Assembly: GCA_039090665.1 (NCBI GenBank) | Contig: JAWCSL010000006.1 | Location: 1 to 44,067 of the forward strand | Reading direction: 5' to 3' | Length of the DNA stretch: 44,067 nt | DNA from: Candidatus Aenigmatarchaeota archaeon | GTDB taxonomy: Archaea; Aenigmatarchaeota; Aenigmatarchaeia; CG10238-14; SCSR01 | In this document: positions 7,759-32,080 of the stretch, piece after piece | How the letters are laid out: every line of letters begins with the position of its first letter | Numbering within the stretch: position 1 is the stretch's first letter | Made by a program: the position numbers and the translations under genes | The notes under the pieces: generated by a model | The model's database searches: none | What the model saw: the letters and a program-made list of their open reading frames with translations, nothing else | What the model was told of the DNA's origin: nothing

Positions 7759-7871
7759 TAGCCCCGGCCAGATTCGAACTGGCGTGTTCAGGTTTCTTTC
7801 TTCATCTTTTTATCTGAGCTTTAGACTTGAAGTCCAAAGCCTGACATCCTTGACCGCTAGATGACGGGGCT
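7759..7871 (-). tRNA. tRNA-Gln(UUG) with 40-nt intron at 37/38 (7794-7833)
   Basis: Acceptor AGCCCCG/CGGGGCT (A1-U72), anticodon stem TCAGG/CCTGA, T-loop TTCGAAT; strict BHB (CTTT:AAAG, CTTCA:TGAAG). Confidence 0.93.
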
Positions 7872-7895
7872 CTAAAAATTAACTTAGGTGTCAGG

Positions 7896-7904
7896 TTATA
7901 AAAA
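7896..7904 (-). promoter_or_regulatory. TATA box of tRNA-Gln
   Basis: TTTTTATAA about 25 nt upstream of the tRNA 5' end. Confidence 0.5.
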
Positions 7905-7908
7905 TTTT

Positions 7909-8136
7909 TTACTTATTTTTTGCTGCTTTTATGCCTTTGGTTGTGATGATATAACTGCTTGAGCCTAATGGTGAGATATTTGCCAAATAACCTTTTTCAA
8001 TTAAAGATTTTAACAAGTTATCTAAACCTGCAACATCAAGCTTACCTTCAACAAGCTTGAACAGCTCTTCTTTACTCATCACAAGCCTTTTCGCCATTTC
8101 TTCAAGAATTTCCTTTTCTATTCCATCAGTATCCAT
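7909..8136 (-). CDS. small winged-helix protein
   Basis: 'LLKSLIEKGYL...YIITTKG' wHTH-like pattern. Confidence 0.55.
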   Translation of the reverse strand: MDTDGIEKEILEEMAKRLVMSKEELFKLVEGKLDVAGLDNLLKSLIEKGYLANISPLGSSSYIITTKGIKAAKNK

Positions 8137-8670
8137 TCAAGCCACCAATTGTTTCTTAACTTCCCATGCTTTCTCTTTTCCCAAAAGCTTTTCGACTATT
8201 GCTAAAGCAAATTCCAATGCTGTGCCTGGACCTTGAGAAGTTATAATATTGGCATCTACCACAACCTTCTCGTCTCTTGGATAAGGCAATTCTTTCTCCA
8301 TTCCAGGATAAATTGTTGCTCTTTTGTTGTCAAGCAAATGATATTTTGCCAAAATAGAAGGAGCTGCACAAATTGCAGCTATAAGCTTTCCTTTTTCATT
8401 CATTTTTTCCAAAAATTCTTTGACTTTGCTTGATTTCAAAAGATTAGCAACTCCTTTAGAGCCTCCTGGCAAAACTATCCCATCATATTTCTCAATATCA
8501 ATTTCATTCAACTTCTTATCTGCCATCACATTTATGTTATGGCTTCCTGTAACCCAGCCAGAAGTTATGCCTACAGCATCAACTTCTATTCCTGCTCTCC
8601 TAAGCACATCTATAACAGTAATTGCTTCTATTTCTTCAAAACCGTCTGCCAGCAAAACAAGGACTCTCAT
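8137..8670 (-). CDS. DJ-1/PfpI (YajL/ThiJ-like) family protein
   Basis: GFEEIE, LPGG, AICAAP and TSQGPGT motifs. Confidence 0.93.
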   Translation of the reverse strand: MRVLVLLADGFEEIEAITVIDVLRRAGIEVDAVGITSGWVTGSHNINVMADKKLNEIDIEKYDGIVLPGGSKGVANLLKSSKVKEFLEKMNEKGKLIAAICAAPSILAKYHLLDNKRATIYPGMEKELPYPRDEKVVVDANIITSQGPGTALEFALAIVEKLLGKEKAWEVKKQLVA

Positions 8671-8701
8671 AAATTAATTTTTGTTTTCGTTTTATTTATT
8701 T

Positions 8702-9049
8702 ATGGAAAAATTCAAGCAGGTTATTGTTGTTAGAACTGACTTGAAAATGGGAAAAGGAAAGATAGCAACTCAAGTGGCACATGCTGCTGTTGGTGTTTTA
8801 AAGCTTGTAAATGAAGAAACAGTGAAAAAGTGGGAAAGGGAAGGAAGCAAGAAAGTTGTTTTGAAAGTTGGAAGTGAAGAAGAACTTTTGCAGCTGTATA
8901 AAAAAACAAAAAAAGAAAAAATTCCTTGTTTTTTGGTCAAAGATGCTGGCTTAACTCAACTTAAGCCAGGTACGATAACAGCTTTGGGAATTGGGCCTGT
9001 TGAAGAAGAAAGGATTGACAAGATAACTGGAAAGCTTAAGTTGCTTTAG
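8702..9049 (+). CDS. pth2: peptidyl-tRNA hydrolase Pth2
   Basis: KQVIVVRTDLKMGKGK..QVAHA, KKVVLK, DAGLTQ, GIGP; ATG at 8702 preferred. Confidence 0.95.
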   Translation: MEKFKQVIVVRTDLKMGKGKIATQVAHAAVGVLKLVNEETVKKWEREGSKKVVLKVGSEEELLQLYKKTKKEKIPCFLVKDAGLTQLKPGTITALGIGPVEEERIDKITGKLKLL

Positions 9050-9095
9050 AGCCTTCTTCATAAAATACTTTGTGCTTAATATTTATTAAGAGACT

Positions 9096-10316
9096 ATGCA
9101 GCTGATAGATGTTGTGTATTTGATAGTTTACTCGGTAATTATTTACTGTTCTGTACTCTGGTTTACCGTATTTTTCAAAAACAAGGAAAAAATGTTTTAC
9201 GATCCAAAACCAAAAAGATTTCCTTCGATAACTTTTCTAGTTCCAGCTTACAATGAAGAAAAAAATATAGAAAAGTGTTTAAAATCAATTCTCAACCTCA
9301 ATTACCCGAAAGAAAAGCTCAAAATCATAGTTATTGATGATGGATCCACAGACAACACTGGAAAAATAGTTGAAAAATTTAAAGGAGTTAAGTTGATAAA
9401 ACAGCAAAAACAGGGAAAAGCAAGGGCTTTGAACAATGGCTTGAAGCATGTGAAAACAGAGCTTGTTGCTTGCATGGATGCTGACTCTTTTCCAGAAAAA
9501 GATTTTTTGATGAAAATGATTGGGTATATGGAAAAAAGAGGTGTTGCTTCCGTCACTCCTGCAATTAAAGTTTTTAAACCCAAAACCTTGATGCAAAAAA
9601 TTCAATGGGTTGAGTATTTGTGGTCAATATTCTTGAGAAAGCTTTTCAGTTTTTTTGATTGTCAGTATGTGACTCCAGGTCCAGGAAGCATTTACAAAAC
9701 TTCTGTTCTCAAAAAGCTTGGTGGTTTTGATGAAGATAACTTGGTGGAAGATACTGAAATAGCTCTAAGGCTTTTTAAGAATGATTATAAAATTGAAAAT
9801 AGCATTAATGCTTATGTTTACACTAAAACTCCTGCCAGCTTTAAAGCACTTTTCAACCAAAGGTTAAGGTGGTATAGAGGCTACATCCAAAATGTTTTCA
9901 AGTACTACAAAATGATTTTGAATCCAAAGTACGGAAACTTAGGGTTTTTTGTTCTGCCTATCAATTTTGTTTGGATGTTCATTCTTGGGTTTTTGTTCTT
10001 CTCACAGATCTTTACCCTTGTGTGGAATGGTATACAATACCTTATAAGTTGGTATCACATAAAATTTGCAATAATGCAGCCAGAAATTACTTTTGATATT
10101 TTCATGATTGATTTTTACACTTATTTCTTCGTGCTTTTCTTGTTTATGAGTATATTTGTTTTATGGTTGAGCGTGGTTTTCTCTGGAGAAAAGTTCAGCT
10201 TGAGAAAAAAGTTCAGCTTTTTCTTGAGCTACCTCTTCCTCTATCCTTTCCTTATATCTATTTTTTGGCTTTCATCCATAATATATGAAATAGTGGGGGC
10301 TAAGAAAAAATGGTGA
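9096..10316 (+). CDS. GT2 processive glycosyltransferase (PgaC/cellulose synthase-like)
   Basis: VPAYNEE, DDGS, DAD, ED and QRLRW motifs; C-terminal TM helices. Confidence 0.9.
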   Translation: MQLIDVVYLIVYSVIIYCSVLWFTVFFKNKEKMFYDPKPKRFPSITFLVPAYNEEKNIEKCLKSILNLNYPKEKLKIIVIDDGSTDNTGKIVEKFKGVKLIKQQKQGKARALNNGLKHVKTELVACMDADSFPEKDFLMKMIGYMEKRGVASVTPAIKVFKPKTLMQKIQWVEYLWSIFLRKLFSFFDCQYVTPGPGSIYKTSVLKKLGGFDEDNLVEDTEIALRLFKNDYKIENSINAYVYTKTPASFKALFNQRLRWYRGYIQNVFKYYKMILNPKYGNLGFFVLPINFVWMFILGFLFFSQIFTLVWNGIQYLISWYHIKFAIMQPEITFDIFMIDFYTYFFVLFLFMSIFVLWLSVVFSGEKFSLRKKFSFFLSYLFLYPFLISIFWLSSIIYEIVGAKKKW

Positions 10317-10981
10317 AAAGAAGAGTTTTTTGGGAATTTTATGTGATTTCAGTAGCAATAACTGCTTTCATCCTTTTCATGGGAATTTACATGGGAATTT
10401 TTTTAAGCAAAGGAAAAATAGAAGAGCTTCAAACTGAGCTCAGGAATCTTAAGCTTAATCAAGAAGACTTAATTTTCGAGCTCAGTTTTCTAACACTTGA
10501 TAAAAATGTTTCTTGCAACTTTATCGGCCAAGCTCTAGAAAGAGTAAGTTACGAAGCTGGAAAACTTGGAGAAAGAGTTGAGGCTTATGAAATAAGTGAA
10601 AAAATCAAGCATCCAGATTTTTACAATTTGAAAAAAGATTACATGATCACTTTAATAAGGTATTGGCTTTATGTTGAAGAATTGAAGAAAAGTTGTAACA
10701 AGAGTGATTTGGTCAGCGTGCTTTACTTTTACTCCAATAAGAATTGCTTTGATTGCAATTCCCAAGGAATGATATTAACTTATTTGAAGAAAAAATATCC
10801 TCAAAACTTGATGGTTTTTGCTTTGGATTATGATATAGAGCTGAACACAATCGAAATTTTAAAGAGAGTTTATGGTTTGGAAAGAGTTCCCAGCCTTGTG
10901 ATAAATGGCAAAAAATATGAAGGTTTGTTAACTCTAGAAAAATTGAGCCAAATACTATGCTCTGAGTACAAGCTTTGCTAA
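10310..10981 (+). CDS. membrane-anchored coiled-coil protein with C-terminal thioredoxin-like domain
   Basis: N-terminal TM; YFYS..CFDC; 'VPSLVING' cis-Pro motif. Confidence 0.65.
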   Translation: MVKRRVFWEFYVISVAITAFILFMGIYMGIFLSKGKIEELQTELRNLKLNQEDLIFELSFLTLDKNVSCNFIGQALERVSYEAGKLGERVEAYEISEKIKHPDFYNLKKDYMITLIRYWLYVEELKKSCNKSDLVSVLYFYSNKNCFDCNSQGMILTYLKKKYPQNLMVFALDYDIELNTIEILKRVYGLERVPSLVINGKKYEGLLTLEKLSQILCSEYKLC

Positions 10982-11556
10982 ATTTTTATTTCAAGAGCAG
11001 CCATCAAGAATTTAGTTACTGCCAAATCAAAATTTCTTAGCTGCTCCACCGAGCTTTTTGCATTTTCACCTTTGATGTAGATTACATGATTTTCAAGCTT
11101 TACTGAAGTTTCGTTTGAATAAATTGGATGGACTAAAGCTATTATTGGATTTTCTCTCGTTCCTTTCAAGTTTTCATAGCTCGTGATGTTAACAACATTA
11201 AAATTTGGTATGTAAGCAAAATTCAGTTTATAAGCTAATGTTAGCTTGTATGTGATTTCAAAAACTTCTACTGCGTAATGAGCATTGATTGTTTCATTTC
11301 CCGGCTTAAAAACTATTGTTATATTTTCTACAAAACTGTTCAAAATTTCTTTTCTCACTGCAATTTCGCTTGGATAAATCGGTACTTTTTCCGCATCTCT
11401 CAAGTTTATCCTAAACTTGAGGTTTTTGCCATAATAATTCCAAGAATATACTGGAAGCTTTATTCTTTGGAATAGTGTCAAAGCTAGCAAAAACAGCAAA
11501 AGAATTGAAGCTAGCAATAATATTTTCTTTTTGCTTAAAGTTAACCTGACTTTCAT
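10978..11556 (-). CDS. hypothetical membrane-anchored protein
   Basis: 192-aa ORF with N-terminal TM, downstream of the S-layer gene. Confidence 0.6.
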   Translation of the reverse strand: MKVRLTLSKKKILLLASILLLFLLALTLFQRIKLPVYSWNYYGKNLKFRINLRDAEKVPIYPSEIAVRKEILNSFVENITIVFKPGNETINAHYAVEVFEITYKLTLAYKLNFAYIPNFNVVNITSYENLKGTRENPIIALVHPIYSNETSVKLENHVIYIKGENAKSSVEQLRNFDLAVTKFLMAALEIKI

Positions 11557-11627
11557 TAGAATTAGAATTGTTTTTCAAAAATAAAAAGAAAAGAAAGCTG
11601 TCAAAAGCTTACAACAAGGTACCAGCC

Positions 11628-13685
11628 TTACATTGGCGTGATACCTGTTGTCGTGGCTGCAGTGACCTTTATAGCTTTGACATTCTGGTCTTTTAGTAAA
11701 GTAGCATATTGCTGAACAACAGCACAAGCTGTTCTTGTGTTGGCTGCTTCCCATCCTGCCACAATCACTGTGTACTTACCGGAAGCAGGATAGTCTTCAA
11801 CTATTTTAATTATGGCAGCGTTCTCTGGTATTCCAGATGCTTCTCCACAAGCTGGGAATGTTAGACCCAAAGCTGCGGCAGCTTCCTGGTTTACACATGG
11901 TCCACCTACAACAACAAGGTTCTTTGTTTTGTCTGCAGCAGAAAGCTCTGTGTCGAGCTTTGCTACTGGTGCTGTGACTGGTGTGTACTTAAGGTAAGTT
12001 TGTCCTTCTACTGCTGCTCCAAGCTTACCAACATACACAACAGCTTTCTGTTGGTCGGCTGGGAGCTTCATAACCACTTTGTCTCTAGCTGTGTATTCTT
12101 TAATTCCTAATATTTCTGTTCCATAGTCAAGAGTTTCTTTCCATTCTTGTGTTCCTAGATTTACATTACAATTTCCATCCCCCTCTTCGTCTATGCATAC
12201 ATCTGCATCTTCAGCTTCTCCAGTTTTATTACCAAGCTGGAATTTCTTTCCATCATCACTTAGTTTATAAGCCAAATTTATAGTACCAGTGTCGCTTGTG
12301 TCTACTATTGTCACATTATTTTCATCGTCGAAAGTGATTGTGAAATCATGTTTGTCAAATGTTCCATCTATCTCTGCATCCTTAGTTGAAGCGCTAAGTA
12401 CCGTTCCTACTATCTTTCCTAATGACTCATCGTAGTATGCTTCAGCAACATGGCTTGTATTGAATGCAATGTATGCCTTCTTGTAAACTTCCCCTCCAAA
12501 CACAGGTTTGTCAGCTGTGATTACTATAGCTGGTAGCTCTCCTGCAATCTTTGTTTCTACATTCGTTGAATCATAAATTCCACCGCTTGTCTTTCCTGCT
12601 TCAAAGGTAAGAGTTACATACTCTTTAACTGCAAGCTCTTTAAAGCCAAATTCAAAGTAGTTGTTTGGAACGATTGCTTTCTCTCCTGCTTTGAGATATT
12701 GATTTGTTTCATTAATGTTGTAAATAAGTGATATTTCTTCTAGTTTATTGTTATCACTAAGTTTTATTGTGTCAAATGTCCAGTAATCATTAGTTGGGAA
12801 TGCATCACCTTCTTTGTATTCTTTCAATGTCTTACCTTTTGGTCCTACTACTACATCAGCTCTTAACACCACATTGTCGGCAGAAACCCATGCATCTATA
12901 AGCCTTACTTCTAAGCCTGTTGCTGAAGATGTAGCAGGTGATGTTTTGCTAACATAAAGTGTGTCAACTGTGCTGTCTCCTTTCATTATCTTTACTCTTA
13001 TCCAAGAGCCGTCCGCGGCGCCTATATCTGAGTAAATTGTGTATTCTCCGTAGGTTAACCCAGTTGTTCCATCGATTGAACCTGTAACTCCTGTCAATAT
13101 CTTAATTGAATTTAAAGTTTGGCCTTTTGTTGTTTCTACTATTGAAAACTCTTGACCAAACAACTTCAATTTCAAAGCTTTGTTAATGCTGCCTGCTAAA
13201 TTTAACTCTTTTGTGAATGTTACTGTGTAAATCAACTTTTTTCCTGTTAAATCTACATATATAGTTCCGTTAAGCTCATCGTCATGCTTCACTTTAGCAC
13301 CAGGAAGTGTTATCTTTTCTATTAGCATAGCACTTTGGTCTTCATATTCTATGGTTTCTCTTTTCAATAATGGCACTTGAGTTTTTGTGTAGGTTTCAAC
13401 TGAGATTGAACTACCAAGTGCTACTGACTGCTCTTTCCCTTCAACAGCTGCAGAAACTCCTGGCACTGCTACTTCTTCTGTGGATTGAACAGCTAAAGCA
13501 ATTGCTACATCTGCTGCTCCTACAACATCCTCAGGCTTGGCAGCCGCTCCAATTACTATCAAGAAATCTTCAACAGGCTTTCCCAAGAAACCGGGAAAGT
13601 CTGCTAGGGTTACTGCCAAGGCTGGGTAAACTGTTGTAAGAGCGGTCAATGCAGCCATCAAGCTTGCAATTATCTTTTCTTTCAT
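11628..13685 (-). CDS. S-layer protein (Methanococcus/Thermococcus-type N- and C-terminal domains)
   Basis: Signal peptide; 'IVIGAAAKPEDVVGAADVA' N-domain; 'NLVVVGGPCVN' and 'VAGW...T' C-domain; GAGGT RBS. Confidence 0.88.
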   Translation of the reverse strand: MKEKIIASLMAALTALTTVYPALAVTLADFPGFLGKPVEDFLIVIGAAAKPEDVVGAADVAIALAVQSTEEVAVPGVSAAVEGKEQSVALGSSISVETYTKTQVPLLKRETIEYEDQSAMLIEKITLPGAKVKHDDELNGTIYVDLTGKKLIYTVTFTKELNLAGSINKALKLKLFGQEFSIVETTKGQTLNSIKILTGVTGSIDGTTGLTYGEYTIYSDIGAADGSWIRVKIMKGDSTVDTLYVSKTSPATSSATGLEVRLIDAWVSADNVVLRADVVVGPKGKTLKEYKEGDAFPTNDYWTFDTIKLSDNNKLEEISLIYNINETNQYLKAGEKAIVPNNYFEFGFKELAVKEYVTLTFEAGKTSGGIYDSTNVETKIAGELPAIVITADKPVFGGEVYKKAYIAFNTSHVAEAYYDESLGKIVGTVLSASTKDAEIDGTFDKHDFTITFDDENNVTIVDTSDTGTINLAYKLSDDGKKFQLGNKTGEAEDADVCIDEEGDGNCNVNLGTQEWKETLDYGTEILGIKEYTARDKVVMKLPADQQKAVVYVGKLGAAVEGQTYLKYTPVTAPVAKLDTELSAADKTKNLVVVGGPCVNQEAAAALGLTFPACGEASGIPENAAIIKIVEDYPASGKYTVIVAGWEAANTRTACAVVQQYATLLKDQNVKAIKVTAATTTGITPM

Positions 13686-13710
13686 ATTTTTACCTCATAT
13701 TTTTTCCTAC

Positions 13711-13742
13711 CTGCCCAGTATAGCGAGAACTATACTGAGCAG
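13711..13742 (-). promoter_or_regulatory. 13-bp stem-loop in the putative S-layer 5' UTR
   Basis: Minus strand CTGCTCAGTATAG-TTCTCG-CTATACTGGGCAG (one G-U pair), between TATA-like TTTATATA (about 13783-13790) and the RBS. Confidence 0.55.
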
Positions 13743-15874: not shown

Positions 15875-15935
15875 CTTCTCCTCCCCTTTTAAACCTAACA
15901 AATTATTATTGGTTGTGAAAAGAAATATAGATTAG

Positions 15936-16020
15936 GCCCCAGTAGCTCAGGTGGTAGAGCGGCTGAGATGAGCCGAACCTCGTAAGCAGTAGGTCGAGGG
16001 TTCGAATCCCTCCTGGGGCT
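15936..16020 (+). tRNA. tRNA-Thr(CGU) with 12-nt intron at 30/31 (15966-15977)
   Basis: Acceptor GCCCCAG/CTGGGGC; removing AGATGAGCCGAA restores the GCTGC/GCAGT stem; BHL motif CGGC:GCCG, GAG:CTC. Confidence 0.92.
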
Positions 16021-16064
16021 TAAGAATTAAAATCTAGCATACAAAATAAAAATGAGGTGAAAAG

Positions 16065-16391
16065 ATGGAAATCGTGCTTTCGATTGAGCAAAAGAACTTG
16101 CAAAAAGTTAAAGATTTGTTGTTAAAAGATGATGTGGTCTCAAGAGCAAGCATCATTTTCAAAGAAGCTAAAAGCTTGAACGGAAGAGAAGGGATTTATT
16201 GTTACATCTCTGGCTTAGAAGAGCAGTGTAAAAGGGCTTTAGAAAAAGTTAAAGTAAAAAATGAGAAAACAGGTGAAATTCTAGAAATAGCAAGAGAAGT
16301 CAGCGGTGAAGAAAAAGAGGAAGTGATAAGCAAAATTAAAGAAGAAGAAAACAGAGCTCTAGAAGGATTTGGTGGAATTTTTCGAGAATAA
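16065..16391 (+). CDS. hypothetical protein
   Basis: GAGGTGA RBS; 108-aa ORF. Confidence 0.7.
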   Translation: MEIVLSIEQKNLQKVKDLLLKDDVVSRASIIFKEAKSLNGREGIYCYISGLEEQCKRALEKVKVKNEKTGEILEIAREVSGEEKEEVISKIKEEENRALEGFGGIFRE

Positions 16392-16432
16392 TTTTAATTT
16401 TTTTAACAACTCTTCACTTAAAAACTATATAT

Positions 16433-16519
16433 GCGCTGGTAGTCCAGTCTGGTCTAAGACGTCGCCCTGCCAATTAAAGCTGAACGGCGGAGACCCGGGT
16501 TCAAATCCCGGCCAGCGCA
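16433..16519 (+). tRNA. tRNA-Gly(GCC) with 12-nt intron at 37/38 (16473-16484)
   Basis: Acceptor GCGCTGG/CCAGCGC; stem TCGCC/GGCGG; relaxed BHL (CTGC:GCTG, 3 of 4 pairs). Confidence 0.9.
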
Positions 16520-16566
16520 CTTAAACTTATATTCTTGGTTTGCAAAATAATTTATTAGTTGGTTCC

Positions 16567-17115
16567 ATGCTATTTGGTAGGAAGAAAGAAGAAGTTAAGA
16601 GAGAAGAAGTTCAAGAAAATGAAGAGATAAAGCTTCCGACAATTGATGAAATCAAGCAACAATTAGGAAAAATAGAAGTTCAAGAAAAAGCTTTGCCAGT
16701 TCCAAAAGTTGAAGAAAGCCCTGTTCAAGTAAGAATGGAAAAGAAAGAACTTGAAAAAAGAACAAGAATTGAAGAATTGAAAAAGTCTGTGCCTCTTTTC
16801 ATAAAACTAGAGAGATATGAAGAAATCTTGAGCATGATAGAAGAGCTCAGAACACTTTTAAGCCTAATCAAAAACTCTTTTTCAGTTCTTGATGAAAGTG
16901 AAAAAATAAAGAGCGAAATTATAGAAACTATAAAAGAAAATGTGAAAAAAATGGAAGAAAAGGTAGCTTCCTTAGACTCAAAATTACTCAAACCAACTGG
17001 ATATGAAGAAATGGAAGAAAGAATAGAATATAAGTCCAAAGAAATGGAAGATGCTCTTTCGACACTTAAATCGCAAATTGATAAACTCAAACAAGAAATT
17101 CAGTCCCTTGAGTAA
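16567..17115 (+). CDS. coiled-coil hypothetical protein
   Basis: E/K-rich heptad pattern; ATG at 16567 preferred over TTG at 16540. Confidence 0.65.
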   Translation: MLFGRKKEEVKREEVQENEEIKLPTIDEIKQQLGKIEVQEKALPVPKVEESPVQVRMEKKELEKRTRIEELKKSVPLFIKLERYEEILSMIEELRTLLSLIKNSFSVLDESEKIKSEIIETIKENVKKMEEKVASLDSKLLKPTGYEEMEERIEYKSKEMEDALSTLKSQIDKLKQEIQSLE

Positions 17116-17152
17116 ACTTTTTCCATTACCATTTTTTAAAATTAATTATTGA

Positions 17153-17268
17153 GCAGGGGTAGCCAAGCGGTTAAAGGCGGCAGGCTCAAGTCAAGTTGAG
17201 CTTTGATTTCAAGATGAAAGAAACCTGCTGGCTTAGTGCCTTCGTGGGTTCGAATCCCACCCCCTGCA
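17153..17268 (+). tRNA. tRNA-Leu(CAA) with 32-nt intron at 37/38 (17191-17222)
   Basis: Acceptor GCAGGGG/CCCCTGC, stem GCAGG/CCTGC, long variable arm, T-loop TTCGAAT. Confidence 0.92.
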
Positions 17269-17374
17269 CAAGATTTTCTCTTGATTTCAATAAAAAACAG
17301 AAAACTTTTGTAACAACTCAATAGAGTCTAAAAAAATCTAAATAAAAAAAGAAAGAAAGCTGAACTAAATGCTT

Positions 17375-18132: not shown

Positions 18133-18421
18133 GCAGGAGGTCCCTGGTCGGAGAGCTAGGCCCTCTCTACTGGCAAAAAGCCAGTGGCAAATGGTCTAAA
18201 TGGCCGACCACAGCTTGAGGGCGGTACAGCTTTGGCAAACTATTCCAAGCTATCGACTGAGAAGTCTTGTCCCATAGGGCTGTCTTCCCATCGAACCCAG
18301 CCAGGCGAGGAATCGAGCAACTGTAAGATGGGTAGACAAGCGCTTATGGTAAACAGGACGGAGAAGATAGCTTGGGTGTAAATAGTTTGTCAAGCTGTAT
18401 CCACCGAGAGCGACCTCCTGC
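18133..18421 (+). ncRNA. ffs: archaeal signal recognition particle (7S) RNA
   Basis: Terminal helix GCAGGAGGTC/GACCTCCTGC; helix 8 CCAGG-CGA-GGAA-TCG-AGCAA; helix 6 GACT-GAGA-AGTC; about 290 nt followed by a T-tract. Confidence 0.9.
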
Positions 18422-21566: not shown

Positions 21567-21648
21567 GGGTCCGTGGTCTAACGGTAGGACGCCAAAATTG
21601 CGGAACCCTCACACGGTGGAGAATTGGGTTCAACTCCCAACGGACCCA
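21567..21648 (+). tRNA. tRNA-Val(CAC) with 11-nt intron at 29/30 (21595-21605)
   Basis: Acceptor GGGTCCG/CGGACCC; removing AAATTGCGGAA restores CCACC/GGTGG; relaxed BHL (CGC:GCG, AGG:CCT). Confidence 0.9.
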
Positions 21649-23804: not shown

Positions 23805-24371
23805 CTATGGTGTCAATCGCTTGATCTCATAATAAGTACAATCATTCTCCCTATCGACAACTGCCCACACGAAAGTAGCTCTTATGTTATGAGCGAGCCT
23901 TACTGCTCTTGACATTTCTGGTAAAGAAAAAGCAGATTCTTCTGGGACTGCATGGACAACAAATTTCGTGTGTTCATGTGGTGCTTTTGGACCTCTAATG
24001 AGCTTCACACCCCTCTCGTAAACTCTGAAATGAGCCCCGAATTTAAAGCCCGTTTTAACTAAGTAACCCCTTTCTCTCAAGTCACGATAAACCACAAACT
24101 GGGGATGAAACTGATTGACTATTTTCGTTGAAATTTCCAACATCTCTTTCAAATCTATGTACCTCTTCTTATTTTCTTCTTTTACAAAAACCTTGATTTT
24201 TCCTTTCTCCAAAAGATAAGCCGCTTCCACCAATTCTAACTCAAGTCTTTGAGGATTTTCCTCAGGAACAGGCTTACCGTAACCAGAATCATCATAAAGT
24301 CTAACAGCATCTCTATCCCAAATTATTACCCTATTTTCTATTAACTCTCCTTCCCAAATCTTTTCCATCAT
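23805..24371 (-). CDS. endA: tRNA-splicing endonuclease, single-unit catalytic-type subunit
   Basis: LEL.LVEAAYL, VYRDLRERGY.VKTGFKFG.HFRVY and VRLAH motifs. Confidence 0.93.
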   Translation of the reverse strand: MMEKIWEGELIENRVIIWDRDAVRLYDDSGYGKPVPEENPQRLELELVEAAYLLEKGKIKVFVKEENKKRYIDLKEMLEISTKIVNQFHPQFVVYRDLRERGYLVKTGFKFGAHFRVYERGVKLIRGPKAPHEHTKFVVHAVPEESAFSLPEMSRAVRLAHNIRATFVWAVVDRENDCTYYEIKRLTP

Positions 24372-24956: not shown

Positions 24957-25045
24957 TGGGACGGGTGGGATTTGAACCCACAACACATCGCTCTTCAGGC
25001 GATCTAGAGCCAAATGGTTGCTCTCCCGGGTTGAGCTACCGTCCC
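24957..25045 (-). tRNA. tRNA-Phe(GAA) with 15-nt intron at 26/27 (25004-25018)
   Basis: Acceptor GGGACGG/CCGTCCC; stem ATCGC/GCGAT; BHB AGAG:CTCT with inner CC:GG pairs. Confidence 0.88.
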
Positions 25046-25755: not shown

Positions 25756-25802
25756 TTAACTCTTATTCAATTTAAGAGTTTACCTTTTAAAAGTTAAAAC
25801 TT

Positions 25803-26900: not shown

Positions 26901-28437
26901 CTCTTTTAATCATTTTTTCTAATTCTTCAATTATTTTTTGTTTTTGTTCTCCAGTTAATTTTTCTAAAGATTCCGCAAGTTCTGGTATGTATTTTCCAAA
27001 CAATTCTTTTCTCATTTTTAATTCTCTTTCTCTTCTTATTTGTCTAACATAGCTTGCGAGCTTTCTCCCAGCATCTTGAAGAGCAAGCTTAACTTCACGA
27101 ATAATTTCTGGATATTTTGCTATAGCTTGTTTTCCTTCAGAAGTGAAAGGAACCCAAACTGAAGCAAAGTGTATAAAAATAACTAAAGGTCCAACTGGTA
27201 GCTGACCTTGAGATTGTGATAAGCCGTAGCGACGAAAATCTGTTTCTATTGCTGCTTCAGTTAAAGCACAGTCTGCTTGATGATATAGCAATGGGACTTT
27301 GTTGGCAAATCTCAAGAGTTGAGCTGTTTGGTCTTGTGGTAAATTGCCCCCATAAGCTAGACCACATTCAACTTGAAAAGGATTGCCACGATAGACACTG
27401 GGTGGTCTTGTGACAGCAACCACATATTCAGCACCTGTTTCTTTTTTCAATCCTTCCATTATAAGCTTTTCGCCTAAAGGAGAAAGACAGTCTGTTGGAG
27501 GAGCGATGAGCTTGACTAACTGCATAGCTTTATGTAGCCTTTCTGATTCTTCATGTGTTAATTGTTGTGGTTTTCTATTCAATTCAAGTTTTGCTAGTTT
27601 ACAAATTTGTTCGGCTGATCTCCTTCCAACCCTACAAAATTCAGAAGTCAAAAATTGCAAAAGAGTTTTTGTTTTTGTAGTTGAAAGCATTCTCCTTAAG
27701 AGACCAATCTCAACACCATAAGGATGTGGCTTAATTTCTTTTGGTTGCTTTGGCATTTCATTAATAGTTCTTTCAAATTCAATTTTGCCATTTGGCCCAT
27801 CAAAAATTATTCTAGCATATGGATTTGCGATTGCTGTTTGCCTGAGATATTCAGGAACTGATTGCGCTCTTTCAACATATTTTCCTTCAATTTCCATTTC
27901 AATCTTAACACCATGCCATTTGTTTGGATTTTTCTCCACTTTATGTGAAACGATTATTGGCTCATTCTTAGTAACATCTATCATTAGCTCGAAAATGTGA
28001 ATGTCTTTTCCGGTACTCGTTGTTATTTTTGTTGGCTTACCTGTGGTAAGTTGAGAATATAGAACTGCACCGTGAATTCCTAGGCCTTGAACACCTCGTG
28101 ATTGTCTTAGCCTATGGAATTTTGACCCATATAAAAATTTACCAAAAGCATAAGGAACTTTTGATTCAACTACACCAGGTCCGTTATCTTCAATCACGAC
28201 TTTAAATCTCTCAGCATTTGTTGGCTTAACAACAACTTTTATTTCTGGTAAAATCCCTGCCTCCCCACAAGCATCCAAAGAATTATCAACACCTTCCTTT
28301 ACTACAGTCAACAAAGCTTTCGCAGGATTTTCGTACCCAAGTAAGTGTCTATTTTTCTCGAAAAATTCTGCTACCGAAACTTCTTTCATATCTTTTGCCA
28401 TTTTTTCTGCTATGCTTTCTTCAACCATATTGCTCAT
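26854..28437 (-). CDS. top6B: DNA topoisomerase VI subunit B
   Basis: EFFEKN..LLG, KE.VDNSLDA, EDNGPG, QSRG.QG.G, RFANKVPLLY and VPFTSEGK motifs. Confidence 0.96.
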   Translation of the reverse strand: MSNMVEESIAEKMAKDMKEVSVAEFFEKNRHLLGYENPAKALLTVVKEGVDNSLDACGEAGILPEIKVVVKPTNAERFKVVIEDNGPGVVESKVPYAFGKFLYGSKFHRLRQSRGVQGLGIHGAVLYSQLTTGKPTKITTSTGKDIHIFELMIDVTKNEPIIVSHKVEKNPNKWHGVKIEMEIEGKYVERAQSVPEYLRQTAIANPYARIIFDGPNGKIEFERTINEMPKQPKEIKPHPYGVEIGLLRRMLSTTKTKTLLQFLTSEFCRVGRRSAEQICKLAKLELNRKPQQLTHEESERLHKAMQLVKLIAPPTDCLSPLGEKLIMEGLKKETGAEYVVAVTRPPSVYRGNPFQVECGLAYGGNLPQDQTAQLLRFANKVPLLYHQADCALTEAAIETDFRRYGLSQSQGQLPVGPLVIFIHFASVWVPFTSEGKQAIAKYPEIIREVKLALQDAGRKLASYVRQIRRERELKMRKELFGKYIPELAESLEKLTGEQKQKIIEELEKMIKRGEESGKEEGGSEEAS

Positions 28438-28915
28438 CCGCTAACTTCCTAAAAACTGTACCATGTTTTCTTCCTTGCAATAAACTTTCCACAGCCCTTT
28501 TTGCTTTTTGCACATCTTCCCACTTTCCAATTATTGAGACTGTTTTACCGTAGATTGCAATTTTAACATTTGTATATTTTTCTATTAATTTTTTTGCTTT
28601 TCCCTTTCTACCTATTACTCTTCCTTTAACCACAATCATTCTGTTCTTCGATTTTCCAGAAAAATCTTGTATGTTTATTGTTTCTAAACAATATTCTTCG
28701 TCCAATAAATTTAACGCGTCTTCAAAATCAAATCCTCTTCCAAAAGCTTTAATCACTTCTTTTAATCTCATCAACAAAAAAGGGTCTTCACATTCTATTG
28801 AAATTTCTTCATTTATATTTATGTTACAATTTGTCAACATTTTCAACTTTCTTGAATAATCCTTTTCTTTAAAAATCTTCAATCTTTCTTCAGGAATTTT
28901 AATTAAACCCATCAT
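28421..28915 (-). CDS. KH-domain rRNA-processing protein (Dim2/Pno1)
   Basis: KA.GRGF, KGRVIG..GK, GKTV.IIG and G.KH..V motifs. Confidence 0.9.
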   Translation of the reverse strand: MMGLIKIPEERLKIFKEKDYSRKLKMLTNCNININEEISIECEDPFLLMRLKEVIKAFGRGFDFEDALNLLDEEYCLETINIQDFSGKSKNRMIVVKGRVIGRKGKAKKLIEKYTNVKIAIYGKTVSIIGKWEDVQKAKRAVESLLQGRKHGTVFRKLADEQYG

Positions 28916-28920
28916 TTTAA

Positions 28921-29244
28921 CTACTCTATTTGGAGATTTTTCACATAACCCTTTCTTTTAAGCCAATTGACCTGAGTTGGAGTGTACTTGAAGATTATAT
29001 CTCCTCTTTCATTGCTCTGAACTTTCCATGGTTGAACCAAAACCAAATCACCAGCACTGACCCAAACTTTTTTTCTTAGTTTACCTGGAATTCTACAAAT
29101 TCTTGTGTTACCATCATCACAAATCACTTTAAGCTTATCTCCACCAAGCATCATTTCTACTGCACCAAGAACTTCTCCTTCTTTTGGAATTCTAATTCTG
29201 GCTATTTCTAATTCTTCTTGTGTTGGTTCATATTTTTTTGCCAT
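28921..29244 (-). CDS. eif1a: translation initiation factor aIF-1A
   Basis: MLGG....V.C.DG..R.CRIPGKLRK.VW...GD.V.V.PW. Confidence 0.95.
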   Translation of the reverse strand: MAKKYEPTQEELEIARIRIPKEGEVLGAVEMMLGGDKLKVICDDGNTRICRIPGKLRKKVWVSAGDLVLVQPWKVQSNERGDIIFKYTPTQVNWLKRKGYVKNLQIE

Positions 29245-29259
29245 TTTTACCACTTCCAC

Positions 29260-29952
29260 TTATTTATTTTCTAAAATATCACTAGAAATAGAAATTAATA
29301 TCGTATCTCTATAAACTTTTTTGCCCCTAATCCTTCCTGCCAATTTTCTAGTGATCTTAAGCTTTGCTTTGTATTTTGTCTTAAGTAACCTTGCCATTTC
29401 ATTCGCAGAATTCTTTGATCCCACAAAAACATCAAATCCGTTTTTGGTTTCCTCAAGTTTTGAAATGAAAGCAAGGTTGTCATATTGATTTAAATAACTC
29501 ATTTGTTTTTCTATTTCTTCTTTAATTTCTTGCAAGAACTCAGGTGGAGCTCTAACTTGTAATATTGCTTGAAAATAACCAGAAGCTTTCATTGAGCAAG
29601 CCTGGCAAATTATTTTCTTTATCACCAAATCCAGAACTTTCTCTTCTTTCTTTTCCAAATTGTTTATTTTCAAGAGTAAATTAAGGTAAAGTTTATTATC
29701 GCTTATTCTGTAAGAAATTGAAGTTAAGTCTTCTTCTTTCAAGAAGTTTTGCAGAAATGTTTCTATTAAATTTTCCATCGAACCACACGATTTGTTTAGG
29801 AAAAATTTTCCACACAACTTACATTCTTTAACTAAAATTTTTGCTGGAATTTTTTCAGCAAAAGAAAATCTTGATAAAAAACATGATTCACAAAAACCTT
29901 CATACAGTTTTTCAGTTCTTTTCCCACACCTTGGGCAAAATTTTTCTCTCAT
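29260..29952 (-). CDS. nmd3: NMD3-family protein, short form
   Basis: FCPRCG, C..C, CKLC, CQAC, YFQAILQVR, G.D...GS and YR.TI motifs. Confidence 0.85.
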   Translation of the reverse strand: MREKFCPRCGKRTEKLYEGFCESCFLSRFSFAEKIPAKILVKECKLCGKFFLNKSCGSMENLIETFLQNFLKEEDLTSISYRISDNKLYLNLLLKINNLEKKEEKVLDLVIKKIICQACSMKASGYFQAILQVRAPPEFLQEIKEEIEKQMSYLNQYDNLAFISKLEETKNGFDVFVGSKNSANEMARLLKTKYKAKLKITRKLAGRIRGKKVYRDTILISISSDILENK

Positions 29953-30005
29953 AAAAAGAAAGTTATTTTTAAATTAGTTAAGTTTGAAATAGAATTTGAG
30001 AAAAA

Positions 30006-30100
30006 GCCTCGTTAGCTCAACGGTAGAGCATCCGAAGAGCTACAAAGCTCTGGTGAACCTTGTAAGCGGAGGGTTGTGGGTTCGAATCCCACACGAGGCT
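30006..30100 (+). tRNA. tRNA-Thr(UGU) with 23-nt intron at 30/31 (30035-30057)
   Basis: Acceptor GCCTCGT/ACGAGGC; stem TCCGC/GCGGA after splicing; strict BHB (CATC:GGTG, AGAGCT:AGCTCT, GAG:CTT). Confidence 0.93.
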
Positions 30101-31138
30101 TTATTTTTTAAGAAAATCTACATCAAGCCAACCAGCAATTTTTGTCAACCCAAAATTTCTGACAATAGAAAAAGCTGTTGGTGAGGAAAAATTGGAAAAA
30201 ATCCATTTTAAAATCAAGCCTTTTCTTATCGGCCAAATCAATTTTTCTTTCCACTTTTTGTCATAATTTTCTATGAAAAATTTTTCGGAAAAATTCTCTT
30301 CTTCTAGAGCTTTAACAATAGCTTTTCCGGCAACTTCTGAACAAATTTTATTATAAACTAAGCCTCCACCAGAAAAAGGTTTTATCTGACAAGCAGAGTC
30401 GCCAACCAAAAGTACATTACCTTTAACTGATTTTTCAATTATTCCAAATCTCAAAACATCTCCAATCTTCTCGTGAAATTCTATTTTCCCAAATCTCTTT
30501 TTCAAAAAGGTTTCTAAATAATTGTTTGGATTTTTGTTTGACATCAACCCTACTCTTGCTATTTTTTCATTTTCAGGGACAATCCATGCAAACCCTGAAG
30601 GAGCAATGTTTGAACCAAAATGAAGTTCCACACTATTATCATCAAAAGTTGATTTCACTTTAACTTGCAAAGCAAAAAACAAATTTTCAGGTTGTTTTAT
30701 TCTAGCCTTCTTTGCAACACTTGAATTTGGTCCATCTGCTCCAACCAAAATTTTCGTTTGAAATTTTCCTTTGGTTGTGAATATTATGCCGTTTTTTAAG
30801 TCAATGAATCTTGTTGATGTCTTTATCTCGGCCCCAGCTTTTTTCGCTCTTTCCGCAAGCCATAAATCATAATTTCTCCTATCCAGGACAAACATTGGTT
30901 CTTTTGAATCAATCTCAAAAAAGTTTTCACCACAAAAAAATCTTGCTTTCTCAATTTTATTCAAGATTATGCTTTTTGGAATTTTACCAATTCTTTTGCT
31001 CACCAAACCAGTACATTGAACAGGCTCCCCTATTTTTGGATGTTCTTCCAAAATTAAAACTTCATATCCTTCCCTAGCTATAATTTCAGCTGTTCTACAG
31101 CCAGACGGTCCAGCACCAACCACAACACAGTCAAACAA
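30101..31138 (-). CDS. geranylgeranyl reductase family flavoprotein
   Basis: VVGAGPSG, PVQC.G, VGADG..S, FAWIVP and LVGD.A.Q.KP.SGGG motifs; TTG start. Confidence 0.85.
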   Translation of the reverse strand: MFDCVVVGAGPSGCRTAEIIAREGYEVLILEEHPKIGEPVQCTGLVSKRIGKIPKSIILNKIEKARFFCGENFFEIDSKEPMFVLDRRNYDLWLAERAKKAGAEIKTSTRFIDLKNGIIFTTKGKFQTKILVGADGPNSSVAKKARIKQPENLFFALQVKVKSTFDDNSVELHFGSNIAPSGFAWIVPENEKIARVGLMSNKNPNNYLETFLKKRFGKIEFHEKIGDVLRFGIIEKSVKGNVLLVGDSACQIKPFSGGGLVYNKICSEVAGKAIVKALEEENFSEKFFIENYDKKWKEKLIWPIRKGLILKWIFSNFSSPTAFSIVRNFGLTKIAGWLDVDFLKK

Positions 31139-31195
31139 GAAAACCTACCAAAGCAAATATAGAAATACAAAAATTTAAAAAAACAAAAATTTGTT

Positions 31196-31900
31196 CTATT
31201 TACCAAAATTTCTTTGAACAGAATTATACCATTTTATTGCTTTAATCAACTCTTTTTTAGAGAAATCTGGCCAAAGAGTTTTTGTAGTGTAGATTTCAGC
31301 ATAAGCTGCCTGGATTAACATAAAATTTGAAAGTCTGGAATAGCCTCCTGTCCTGATCACAAGATCAAGAGGAACTGGAACGAGCAAATTAGCTTCTATA
31401 TCTTTTTCTGTTATCTCTATTCTACCAAGCTTAATTGCTTTTTCTGCAATTTTCTTTATTGCTTGTGTTAATTCAAACTTACTTCCATAAGCAATCATTA
31501 TGTTTAAAATTCTTTTCTGATATTTTGCAGTTTTTTGCATTATTTTCCCCATAAGTTTAACTAGTTTTGGAGGCAATTTTTCCAAATCACCAACAAACCT
31601 TACTTTGACTTGATATTTGTCTAAAAAACTCCCTTCTTTCTTTTCCCATTTTTCAAAATATTCGTAAAATAGCTTGAATATTTCTTCCAGTTCTCTTTTT
31701 GGTCTATTCAAATTTTCTGTAGATAAAACATAAGCTGAGATTTGTGGTATTCCAAGTTCTAAACACCATCGCAAAAAGTTTTCGAAATTTTTTGCACCAT
31801 ATTTATGACCTTCCCATGGTTGTAAGCCATGAAGCTTGGCCCATCTTCTGTTCCCATCTAAAATTATGCCCAAATGATTTGGAACTTTCAAACCATTCAT
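31196..31900 (-). CDS. uppS: cis-prenyltransferase (undecaprenyl/dolichyl diphosphate synthase)
   Basis: HLGIILDGNRRWA, STEN..R, IRTGG..RLSNF, WPDF and RNFG motifs. Confidence 0.95.
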   Translation of the reverse strand: MNGLKVPNHLGIILDGNRRWAKLHGLQPWEGHKYGAKNFENFLRWCLELGIPQISAYVLSTENLNRPKRELEEIFKLFYEYFEKWEKKEGSFLDKYQVKVRFVGDLEKLPPKLVKLMGKIMQKTAKYQKRILNIMIAYGSKFELTQAIKKIAEKAIKLGRIEITEKDIEANLLVPVPLDLVIRTGGYSRLSNFMLIQAAYAEIYTTKTLWPDFSKKELIKAIKWYNSVQRNFGK

Positions 31901-31977
31901 ATAATCACTGTTTTTCAAAATAAATTTTTAAATACATAATAAATACTTTTAGAGTTTAGGTAAAATTTAAAAATAAT

Positions 31978-32080
31978 GGGGTCGTCGTCTAACCAGGCAG
32001 GACAGCAGGCTCCAGTTTCATGGAGCTCGGATAAAAGATGAAGAAACCTGTATGTGGGGGTTCAAATCCCCTCGACCCCA
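31978..32080 (+). tRNA. tRNA-Trp(CCA) with 30-nt intron at 37/38 (32016-32045)
   Basis: Acceptor GGGGTCG/CGACCCC; stem GCAGG/CCTGT; T-loop TTCAAAT. Confidence 0.92.

Follow-up and report, generated by a model that had tools for sequence, protein, structure and literature searches.

In this study, we found that three tRNA genes in a 44,067-nt stretch of DNA from a Candidatus Aenigmatarchaeota archaeon (the whole stretch is referred to as the window) carry short introns with a guide antisense to their own anticodon arm. Each intron is probably a minimal box C'/D'-type guide with a single K-loop, which would act on its own host pre-tRNA and direct methylation of nt 34. A preliminary description of this DNA had proposed a single D'/C' K-loop half guide that extends wobble methylation beyond tRNA-Trp. 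The proposal is supported by the invariant register, by covariation of the guide and the K-loop, and by the genes for fibrillarin and Nop5, and methylation is predicted on these grounds.

The Gln, Leu and Trp genes were all scored as tRNA in an Rfam search of the window. The tRNA-Gln(UUG) gene (7759..7871, minus strand; RF00005, 46.7 bits, and sequence) has a 40-nt intron at 37/38, read from the sequence at 7794..7833 (minus strand), with A38 at 7793 and a boundary ambiguous by one A. The tRNA-Leu(CAA) gene (17153..17269, plus strand) contains a 32-nt intron at 17191..17222, and the tRNA-Trp(CCA) gene (31978..32081, plus strand) a 30-nt intron at 32016..32045; both genes were identified from the sequence, ARAGORN and Rfam, and both introns were placed by reading the sequence. 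The coordinates first proposed for the three 37/38 introns were borne out by this reading. With introns allowed, ARAGORN also found all three genes; it misplaced the Gln intron and called the gene a suppressor, 'Stop(tta)'. The Gln anticodon was assigned as UUG because the canonical BHB fixes it.

Each guide is antisense to the anticodon arm of its own host from G30, as had been claimed for all three. The Gln guide CUAAAGCU (7817..7824, minus strand; read from the sequence) is antisense to G30-G37 over 8 bp, including 2 G.U. The Leu guide UUGAGCU (17196..17202, plus strand) and the Trp guide UGGAGCU (32021..32027, plus strand), both identified by sequence and folding, are antisense to G30-A36 over 7 bp. 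The guide hairpin was the minimum-free-energy fold in 3/3 anticodon-arm-plus-intron segments of the window, at -13.5 kcal/mol for the Gln guide with its anticodon loop. In the three introns a box of the form NNGA begins after one spacer nt past the guide, and the fifth nt upstream of it pairs with nt 34, in agreement with the register first described. At 7-8 bp in Leu and Trp, the guide duplexes are short, and this was counted against reading them as methylation guides.

We next consider related introns. The parser had three requirements only, 5 nt perfectly antisense to nt 32-36, an anticodon stem free of mismatches and a T-arm, and GA was not among them. The parsed set comprised 117 anticodon-arm-plus-intron records, 112 of them unique (by tRNA: Trp 24, Leu-CAA 23, CAU 23, Gln 20, Lys 19 and Leu-UAA 3). 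The 100% guide-helix pairing in these introns is partly built in by the parser. In 117/117 records GA occupied positions 3-4 of a box whose start lies exactly 2 nt past the guide, which places nt 34 at N+5. When checked in related genomes, as the preliminary description had proposed, guide/anticodon covariation, the GA box and the N+5 register were all kept in the 117 parsed introns. By eye, all 17 further loci that the parser missed shared this layout; they have an extra intron or a mismatch in the stem or guide. The design was present in 134/134 orthologous loci fetched, a count biased toward intron-bearing genes by the use of intron-containing BLAST queries. Exceptions in detail were two orthologues without the C' UGA (L031, L062) and one with a degenerate guide (L025).

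The guide follows the anticodon: UGGAG for CCA, UUGAG for CAA, UUAAG for UAA, (C/U)AAAG for UUG, AAAAG for UUU, AUGAG for CAU and AGAAG for UCU. Guide position +2 likewise tracks nt 31, being U with A31 (L045, L082, L086) and G with C31 (Arg, L115-117). The covariation of guide and anticodon initially noted is therefore seen across six tRNA species and extends to nt 31. The family had been described as one of three tRNAs. Those three stand, and the size does not: the same genome has further members in Lys(UUU) and CAU tRNAs plus a Cys variant, and relatives add Leu(UAA) and Arg(UCU) hosts. The Cys variant aims the module at C39, which lies at N+5 in all 8 loci (read by eye). A covariance model (R1) gave matches in 100/151 sampled Aenigmatarchaeota genomes and in 50/51 of the same order, with 4-8 matches per genome within the family to which this archaeon belongs. 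These results indicate that the design is conserved across the phylum.

The D'-like boxes of the window are CAGA in Gln (7813..7816, minus strand), UUGA in Leu (17203..17206, plus strand) and CGGA in Trp (32028..32031, plus strand). All three differ from CUGA, and the GA of each is at the same register in the related introns. The C' box was originally taken as AAGATGA, separated from the D-like box by 3-4 nt. This was corrected: the conserved partner that covaries with NNGA is (R)UGA-N5-N6, 3 nt downstream of AAGAUGA, and the D'-to-C' loop then measures 5-11 nt. The upstream GA of AAGAUGA is missing in many orthologues (e.g., L008, L012, L015, L018, L020, L021). The C' core is UGA-AG in Gln (7800..7804, minus strand), where G6 pairs with C1 of CAGA and GAAG also serves as the h' strand of the BHB. 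It is UGA-AA in Leu (17215..17219, plus strand), where A6 pairs with U1 and A5 with U2, and UGA-AG in Trp (32039..32043, plus strand), where G6 pairs with C1.

The motif is unspecific by itself, since the loose form YNGA-N3-6-RGATGA has 129 matches in the 620-kb genome. What goes beyond chance, in our view, is not the motif alone: the register is fixed, and covariation is seen across relatives. The downstream UGA was found in 110/112 unique related introns. N1-N6 was Watson-Crick in 82/82 unique single-UGA introns (C-G 30, U-A 51, A-U 1); 5000 shuffles averaged 42.7 and never exceeded 58 of 82, and the count was 15-51 of 82 when the partner was slid by 1-3 nt. In single-UGA introns, N2 = C was always opposite N5 = G (8/8). 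The C-G and U-A types of N1-N6 both occur inside each of five tRNA species, and RNAalifold independently predicted the same N1-N6/N2-N5 pairs. Both GA dinucleotides are near-invariant in the related introns. Near-invariant GAs with covarying flanking pairs make up what appears to be the signature of a K-loop with a non-canonical stem.

Compared with the definition of a K-turn or K-loop, the introns show, at the sequence level, NNGA facing (R)UGA-NN, with predicted tandem sheared G.A and a short non-canonical stem. A guide also lies immediately upstream of D/D', and the fifth nt of its duplex is the predicted target. Only one NNGA/UGA-NN pair fits into introns of 23-63 nt, rather than two K-motifs per RNA, and neither an RUGAUGA upstream of the guide nor a second guide was found in the window introns and the parsed related introns. 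Because there is only one K-motif, the introns would work like a box C/D guide and are not full members of that class. In Rfam searches, no snoRNA/sRNA family reached the gathering score anywhere in the window; around the Gln gene, there was no such match even at E <= 1.

We examined the genome for the C/D proteins, whose presence the preliminary description had named as a check. In a profile search, fibrillarin (289.8 bits) and Nop5 (215.3 bits) were found, adjacent on contig C3. This Nop5 can be aligned over its whole length with that of S. solfataricus (3ID5), and its coiled-coil/dimerisation region is kept. That part of the check was confirmed; L7Ae was not found by the profile search in the 90.6%-complete assembly, though it was above the cut-off in 39/39 relatives searched. 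In four congeners L7Ae lies 2.7 kb upstream of a tRNA-Leu gene whose orthologue here is truncated where contig C3 begins. The single PF01248 match was rejected as an L7Ae candidate; it scored only 16.1 bits on the L7Ae model and is L30e by gene order (by eye). There was no FtsJ/Trm7-family match above the cut-off in the genome.

The window also encodes the tRNA-splicing endonuclease EndA, an ORF of 188 aa (23805..24371, minus strand) that is the sole PF01974 match in the genome (94.8 bits). In Gln, the 3' part of the BHB spans 7794..7799 (minus strand): the H strand AAAG (7796-7799) pairs with C32-U35 at 4/4 positions, and AA (7794-7795) with A38 forms the 3' bulge. The Leu H strand AAAG (17217-17220) overlaps the C' core. 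In Trp, GAAG (32040-32043) is also the H strand, facing C32-C35 at 3/4 positions (C34.A), and is directly followed by the 3' bulge AA|A (32044-32046). A 3' splice-site bulge with a 4-bp helix to nt 32-35 is a feature of the family as well, with AA|A in 90/112 introns. The H helix was 4/4 in 34/39 Gln and Lys introns, 3/4 in 24/24 Trp introns, and 2-3/4 in most Leu and CAU introns. Helix h' and the second 3-nt bulge are perfect in Gln (CUUC/GAAG) and, by eye, weak or absent in Leu and Trp, whose introns look like the relaxed bulge-helix-loop form.

Since the splicing helix is a different one, formed by NAAG at the intron 3' end with nt 32-35, the guide is an extra element. Introns of Arg(UCG), Tyr, Thr, Val and Phe tRNAs in the same genome have no guide module. 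The C' UGA-NN overlaps the H strand by at least 2 nt in 63/110 introns, and the guide occupies nt 32-36, which the H helix also needs. The relaxed BHB therefore competes with the guide and the K-loop, which implies two conformers. Covariation is seen in three helices.

We propose the following mechanism. After transcription, the 7-11 nt guide would fold back onto nt 30/31-36/37 of the anticodon arm. One nt 3' of this duplex, NNGA and the downstream UGA-NN would form a K-loop with two sheared G.A, two covarying pairs and a loop of 5-11 nt. L7Ae would bind the K-loop and bring in Nop5-fibrillarin, and fibrillarin would 2'-O-methylate the nt opposite the fifth guide position upstream of NNGA, namely wobble nt 34, or C39 in the Cys variant. 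The RNA would then refold, EndA would cut and the exons would be ligated. L7Ae binding and methylation are inferred, and so are the order of methylation and splicing and the way the guide would act, in cis or, once excised with the intron, in trans. The predicted targets in Leu(CAA), Leu(UAA), Met and Trp tRNAs are exactly the wobble sites given as C/D-guided in Pyrococcus according to PMC7994747.

It is tempting, if still speculative, to extend this to a modify-before-splice switch, in which Aenigmatarchaeota may use a one-kink, one-guide module in the introns of up to ~8 tRNA species and splicing would be licensed only once the RNP has acted and left. In one state, the C' strand (GA-NN) and loop nt C32-N35 would pair with the D' box and the guide, giving a methylation-competent RNP. 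In the other, the C' strand and C32-N35 would pair with each other, giving a BHB cleavable by EndA. The single K-motif of each intron counts against methylation by these introns, since the C/D RNPs of archaea are described as methylating efficiently only when a C/D and a C'/D' motif are both present; with the coiled-coil region of Nop5 kept, a dimeric partner would be expected.

An alternative is that the K-loop binds L7Ae or another K-turn protein solely as a folding or splicing aid that shapes the relaxed BHB or times its formation, with a regulatory or protective anticodon helix and no methylation. Such a role would fit the competition of both K-loop and guide with the BHB, the overlap of C' and H strands, and the single K-motif per intron, and a helper could be useful where the H helix is imperfect, as in C34 tRNAs. 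We consider it unlikely, however, as it predicts neither nt 34 at N+5 in 117/117 introns nor the re-aiming of the Cys module to C39. Nor does it explain why the module sits in the very tRNAs that have a C/D-guided nt 34 in Pyrococcus, as reported in PMC7994747, and the Arg(UCG), Tyr, Thr, Val and Phe introns are spliced without the module.

Somewhat less likely still, the introns may be true C/D-type guides that act mainly in trans after excision, as linear or circular RNA, on another pre-tRNA or mature tRNA, with two introns per Nop5 dimer. The H. volcanii Trp intron is stated to act in trans (PMC11408192, PMC4090602), and a two-RNA particle, for which the Nop5 dimerisation region is kept, would solve the single-K-loop problem. 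However, in many short forms the guide-target helix is capped by a loop of 4 nt, G37 and 3 intron nt (GAAA, GUAA, GAGA; L015, L020, L021, L023, L027), which looks selected for intramolecular pairing. Moreover, pairing of the Cys guide spans the 3' splice junction, so that this guide can act only on unspliced RNA. Finally, mere common descent of a duplicated or transposed intron, with the usual splicing pairing and coincidental boxes, is highly improbable: introns of different tRNAs are clearly homologous (common frame ...AGCU-NNGA...GAUGA...GAA|A) and the genome, which is AT-rich, has many matches to the loose box motif, but the splicing helix is a separate element and N1-N6 switches repeatedly within each tRNA lineage while the GAs stay fixed, which is not expected from neutral descent.

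A minimal guide in the host's own intron would mean that these tRNA introns have a function, and that selection has grounds to retain them in genomes of ~0.6 Mb. With such a natural half-size substrate, one could ask what number of K-motifs a C/D RNP really requires; specific Nm34 and Nm39 sites follow as predictions for uncultured archaea. The arrangement suggests an RNA switch by which modification comes before splicing; if this is true, it would be the smallest natural C/D-type guide and would explain why the introns persist.

The euryarchaeal tRNA-Trp intron has a length of roughly 60-100 nt and carries a C/D as well as a C'/D' motif. The guide in that intron (Haloferax volcanii; Pyrococcus sR50) resembles those described here in its 37/38 site and in being antisense to its own anticodon arm (PMC4090602, PMC11408192, PMC7994747, PMC6313347). 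According to these sources, nt 34 is likewise at N+5 of a D-type box and guide pairing competes with the BHB. The Trp intron additionally guides Um39/Cm39 (PMC6313347), the site predicted for the Cys variant. It uses L7Ae, Nop5 and fibrillarin, whose use here is predicted from sequence. The reviews describe it as a complete box C/D sRNA with two sites, whereas the present introns of 23-63 nt have one K-loop, one guide and no terminal C/D pair.

In Pyrococcus, the tRNAs Leu(CAA), Leu(UAA), Met and Trp each have a C/D sRNA directed to their nt 34, which for Trp is the tRNA's own intron (PMC7994747). The guides for the other three share their targets with the introns here, but are described as independent, two-motif RNAs acting in trans, whereas here the guide sits within the target's own intron. 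The elongator tRNA-Met of Nanoarchaeum equitans has a 66-nt intron that yields a stable C/D-like RNA (Randau 2012, PMC3491384). It is likewise from a DPANN archaeon and box C/D-like with a non-Trp host, and a CAU tRNA is also a host here; unlike the present introns, it is longer and has box C, box D and a GC hairpin. Neither a target register nor a further host tRNA is given for it in the available text of PMC3491384. Archaeal BHB and relaxed BHB (hBH, BHL) introns share the 37/38 site, the AA|A 3' bulge by the anticodon stem, the 4-bp H helix with nt 32-35 and an EndA gene, but an ordinary BHB intron needs neither a second anticodon-complementary element nor a K-loop, both of which are present here. 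A DPANN alpha4-type EndA with an extra loop has been reported alongside disrupted tRNA genes (PMC5829648). The tRNA-Trp intron guide has been called 'a unique example' (PMC4090602); in the known euryarchaeal system the host is Trp, whereas here the principle appears general, as one phylum has the minimal module in tRNAs for Trp, Leu, Gln, Lys, Arg and Cys and in the CAU tRNA.

In the window, Rfam recognised eight tRNA genes and one archaeal SRP RNA. Three tRNA genes, tRNA-Gln(UUG) at 7759-7871 on the minus strand, tRNA-Leu(CAA) at 17153-17269 on the plus strand and tRNA-Trp(CCA) at 31978-32081 on the plus strand, carry an intron at 37/38, and reading of the sequence bore out the intron coordinates given for them in the preliminary description. 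ARAGORN in default mode missed all three genes and mis-called others. Its intron mode recovered all three, with the Gln intron off by two bases and the gene labelled a suppressor. The Gln intron forms a canonical bulge-helix-bulge (BHB) for splicing (C32-U35 facing AAAG, bulge G36 G37|A, helix CUUC/GAAG, bulge AA|A38), which fixes the anticodon as UUG. The SRP RNA (RF01857, 116.7 bits) lies at 18134-18420 on the plus strand, about 0.9 kb downstream of tRNA-Leu. Every DNA data set holding the stretch 15900-17300 was labelled as hot-spring metagenome, and at least 0.69 of the sampled words of this stretch were found in three further sequencing studies (X7, X8 and X9).

Each of the three introns contains a guide, antisense to its own G30-A36/G37, followed by one nucleotide and a D'-like box, NNGA. 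The sequences are CUAAAGC-U-CAGA in Gln, UUGAGC-U-UUGA in Leu and UGGAGC-U-CGGA in Trp. As previously described, the fifth nucleotide upstream of NNGA pairs with the wobble nucleotide, nt 34, in all three (N+5 register). The guide hairpin was the predicted minimum-energy fold of the Gln, Leu and Trp segments in RNAfold (-13.5, -12.6 and -11.4 kcal/mol, respectively). Since the box motif alone is common, with 129 matches to the loose pattern YNGA-N3-6-RGATGA genome-wide, the case was built on register and conservation.

The genome comprises 620,606 bases in 15 contigs, C12 being the window (completeness 90.57%, G+C 34%). In this genome, ARAGORN with introns placed the same layout in tRNA-Lys(UUU) (contig C9, 45746-45857) and in a CAU tRNA, elongator Met or Ile2 (contig C1, 35745-35851), and an altered form in tRNA-Cys(GCA) (contig C13, 23315-23419). 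Thus, the family proposed for Gln, Leu and Trp stands for these three hosts, and its limit to three does not. The layout was absent from the Arg(UCG), Tyr, two Thr, Gly, Val and Phe introns of this genome, and by eye no NNGA/UGA-NN pair was seen in the window introns of Val, Phe, Thr(UGU) and Gly. Val(CAC), assigned by eye to an Rfam tRNA at 21567-21648 on the plus strand that ARAGORN did not see even in intron mode, has an intron of about 12 nt within the 5' strand of the anticodon stem. The gene at 24957-25045 on the minus strand, called tRNA-Pyl(cta) by ARAGORN, reads by eye as tRNA-Phe(GAA) with the anticodon arm AUCGC-CUGAAGA-GCGAU; its intron of about 15 nt near 26/27 has no K-loop. tRNA-Thr(CGU) (15935-16021, plus strand) and tRNA-Thr(UGU) (30005-30101, plus strand) are interrupted at about 30/31 by introns of 12 nt and 23 nt, respectively. 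The AGAUGA of the Thr(CGU) intron was dropped as a box, the same place reading AACUAA in a relative of the same genus (locus L036). The partial tRNA-Leu with which contig C3 begins was also excluded as a member, having a 12-nt intron without a K-loop. Rfam gave no C/D family match for the introns. A strict pattern search of the whole genome for free-standing C/D sRNAs gave one match, within an ORF-like stretch, and the loose-pattern matches outside long ORFs were either unconvincing or, as judged by eye, part of the rRNA operon or of a CRISPR array. These pattern matches also pointed to CRISPR-array-like GTTAAAATCAGACTAATGTAGGATTGAAAG-like repeats with variable spacers at about 81000-82700 of contig C1.

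To follow the introns across relatives, 60 related genomes were searched with each intron-containing gene, and 134 loci were obtained from the first five of these searches. Because the queries held the intron and the best 23-30 loci per query were taken, these counts are no measure of intron frequency among orthologues. The parser's only requirements were a T-arm, an anticodon stem of five perfect pairs and, downstream of a loop containing U33, five nucleotides perfectly antisense to nt 32-36; no box was specified. The yield was 117 records, which reduce to 112 unique ones (Trp 24, Leu-CAA 23, CAU 23, Gln 20, Lys 19 and Leu-UAA 3). In all 117 records, GA occupied box positions 3-4 of a box starting exactly two nucleotides past the guide. 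The 17 loci outside the parser all showed the same design by eye, their departures being a mismatch in the stem or in the guide, an odd T-arm or an extra intron; three of them, from two relatives in the same genus, are tRNA-Arg(UCU). Weak cases were L025, whose guide has two mismatches, and L031 and L062, which have no downstream UGA.

The guide changes with the anticodon: UGGAG for CCA, UUGAG for CAA, UUAAG for UAA, (C/U)AAAG for UUG, AAAAG for UUU, AUGAG for CAU and AGAAG for UCU. Guide position +2 tracks nt 31, with U facing A31 in L045, L082 and L086 and G facing C31 in the Arg genes. The 100% pairing of the central five guide pairs follows from the construction of the parser; the change between species and the nt-31 covariation are independent of it. 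Both the motif and the guide/anticodon covariation hold in the orthologous introns retrieved from related genomes.

The partner of NNGA differed from that first proposed. AAGAUGA had been taken as the conserved box, and its first GA is missing in many orthologues, such as ...CUGA-AAAA-UGA-AG-AA|A in L020 and L021. The constant element is UGA, and the next two nucleotides (N5 and N6) pair with the first two of NNGA. N1-N6 was Watson-Crick in 82 of the 82 unique introns with exactly one UGA past the box (C-G 30, U-A 51, A-U 1). In 5000 shuffles of N6 the mean was 42.7 and the count never exceeded 58, and with the partner moved along by one, two or three nucleotides 15 to 51 of the 82 were Watson-Crick. 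N2 is mostly U, opposite A, G or U, and where N2 is C, N5 is G (8/8). As each of the five hosts Trp, Leu, Gln, Lys and CAU has introns of the C-G and of the U-A type, the N1/N6 double changes arose repeatedly. With UGA-NN as the partner, the D'-to-C' loop measures 5-11 nt, in place of the 3-4 nt spacer reported before. At the level of sequence, the two fixed GA, the two covarying pairs and the loop of 5-11 nt have the make-up of a K-loop (a C'/D' motif), as recognised from established knowledge of K-turns.

Given a MAFFT alignment that covered 56 of the 112 unique introns, and no structure, RNAalifold predicted three helices, namely the anticodon stem, the guide helix including the nt 31/guide position +2 pair, and the two D'/C' pairs. 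This third helix was only 79.5% paired on the alignment because the short-form C' is misaligned by three columns; the 82/82 is the register-aware count. In five long-form Trp introns of relatives (L016, L019, L028, L030 and L032), the sequence of the anticodon loop recurs as (C)UCCA within the D'-C' loop. This copy could base-pair with UGGAG of the guide and, as a decoy, may leave the anticodon loop available to the BHB.

The Cys variant was found at eight loci in six genera. It retains the K-loop, with UC/GA covariation in L143 and L144, and its guide, UUGGUCUU, lacks complementarity to the anticodon. As judged by eye, this guide would pair with GAG|A38-C39-C40-G41-A42 over the 3' splice junction, placing C39 at N+5. 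The anticodon stem is invariant among the Cys loci, hence covariation is silent on the C39 pairing. The known Trp intron likewise guides a second site, and this is position 39 (PMC6313347). Four tRNA-Gly(GCC) genes of relatives (L037, L039, L040 and L044) have an extra D-loop intron with AAGAUGAA or GAGAAUGA beside UCUGGA, which is complementary to the D-arm GUCCAG; these introns may form another class of self-complementary intron.

A covariance model was built on the 56-sequence alignment. It matched in 100 of 151 sampled genomes of the phylum, including 50 of 51 from the same order and 49 of 99 outside it, all labelled as the same class. Genomes of the same family had 4-8 matches each, and this genome had five (Lys, Gln, Leu, CAU and Trp). 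Matches from other families showed the same design by eye.

The splicing helix is distinct from the guide. The intron ends in the six nucleotides NAAG + AA, and 90 of 112 introns show the 3' bulge AA|A38. NAAG (the H strand) forms 4/4 pairs with C32-N35 in 34 of 39 Gln and Lys introns, 3/4 pairs in 24 of 24 Trp introns, with A opposite C34, and 2-3 of 4 pairs in most Leu and CAU introns. The identity of its N tends to suit nt 35, with G in Trp and U in most CAU introns. A instead of G faces C34 nearly throughout the Trp, Leu-CAA and CAU loci, with UGAG in only 2 of 70 unique introns; this persistent C34.A mismatch may make the BHB weaker in comparison with the guide fold. The C' UGA-NN overlaps the H strand by at least 2 nt in 63 of 110 introns, and nt 32-36 are taken by the guide in every case. 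Owing to these shared strands, the guide/K-loop fold and the BHB fold are mutually exclusive. The single gene for the splicing endonuclease EndA (188 aa) lies at 23805-24371 of the window. In DPANN archaea, alpha4-type EndA with an extra loop is reported to go along with disrupted tRNA genes (PMC5829648).

We examined the genome for the C/D proteins. The profile search found fibrillarin (289.8 bits) next to Nop5 (215.3 bits) on contig C3. The closest fibrillarin homologues are from Candidatus Aenigmatarchaeota (identity up to 88%), consistent with the DPANN placement in the preliminary description. Two of the three expected proteins were found; L7Ae was not found in this assembly, yet it scored above the cut-off in 39 of 39 relatives. 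The sole PF01248 match was rejected as L7Ae, its score against the L7Ae model being 16.1 bits (cut-off 134.6); it sits by eye between RNA-polymerase-like and KH-domain ORFs and is L30e by its neighbours. In four relatives of the same genus, L7Ae lies 2.7 kb upstream of a tRNA-Leu gene. Since the orthologous tRNA-Leu, with the same downstream flank, is truncated here by the start of contig C3, the missing L7Ae is likely an assembly gap. No FtsJ/Trm7 family member reached the cut-off in this genome (best 22.2 vs 24.1 bits), and the family was present in 14 of 14 control genomes. A 214-aa ORF abutting tRNA-Trp (32081-32725, minus strand) gave a weak fibrillarin-family match (26.8 bits). It is disfavoured as a second fibrillarin and by eye resembles a protein-L-isoaspartate methyltransferase.

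We consider it probable that the intron is a minimal single-K-loop C'/D'-type guide. It would position Nop5-fibrillarin at nt 34 of its own pre-tRNA, which would then refold into the BHB and be spliced. The chief rival, in which the element is solely an L7Ae-dependent splicing aid, appears unlikely. The guide reading is favoured because the N+5 register is strict, because the module is re-aimed to C39 in Cys, and because the hosts match the tRNA species whose nt 34 is C/D-guided in Pyrococcus, according to an excerpt (PMC7994747). The main weakness of the guide reading is the single K-motif against a dimeric-looking Nop5. A Nop5 without the coiled coil, suited to a half-size RNP, was ruled out: residues 1-351 align to 2-372 of S. 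solfataricus Nop5, and this whole-length alignment indicates that the coiled-coil region is retained. Two RNAs per particle, or trans action of the excised introns, are possible alternatives.

Compared with canonical C/D sRNAs, the introns have the K-loop and the N+5 register, with one K-motif per RNA instead of two. The euryarchaeal tRNA-Trp intron is a full box C/D guide, whereas the introns here have one K-motif. In Nanoarchaeum equitans, a C/D-like stable RNA is located in a 66-nt tRNA-Met intron, and in the excerpted text its author states that only tRNA-Trp was known before (PMC3491384). In the literature compared, with the founding 2001 paper outside the comparison, no description of one-kink guides was found for Leu, Gln, Lys, Arg or Cys introns. 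We rate what is new here as a probable one-kink variant of the intron-borne C/D guide, short of the canonical two-motif C/D sRNA.
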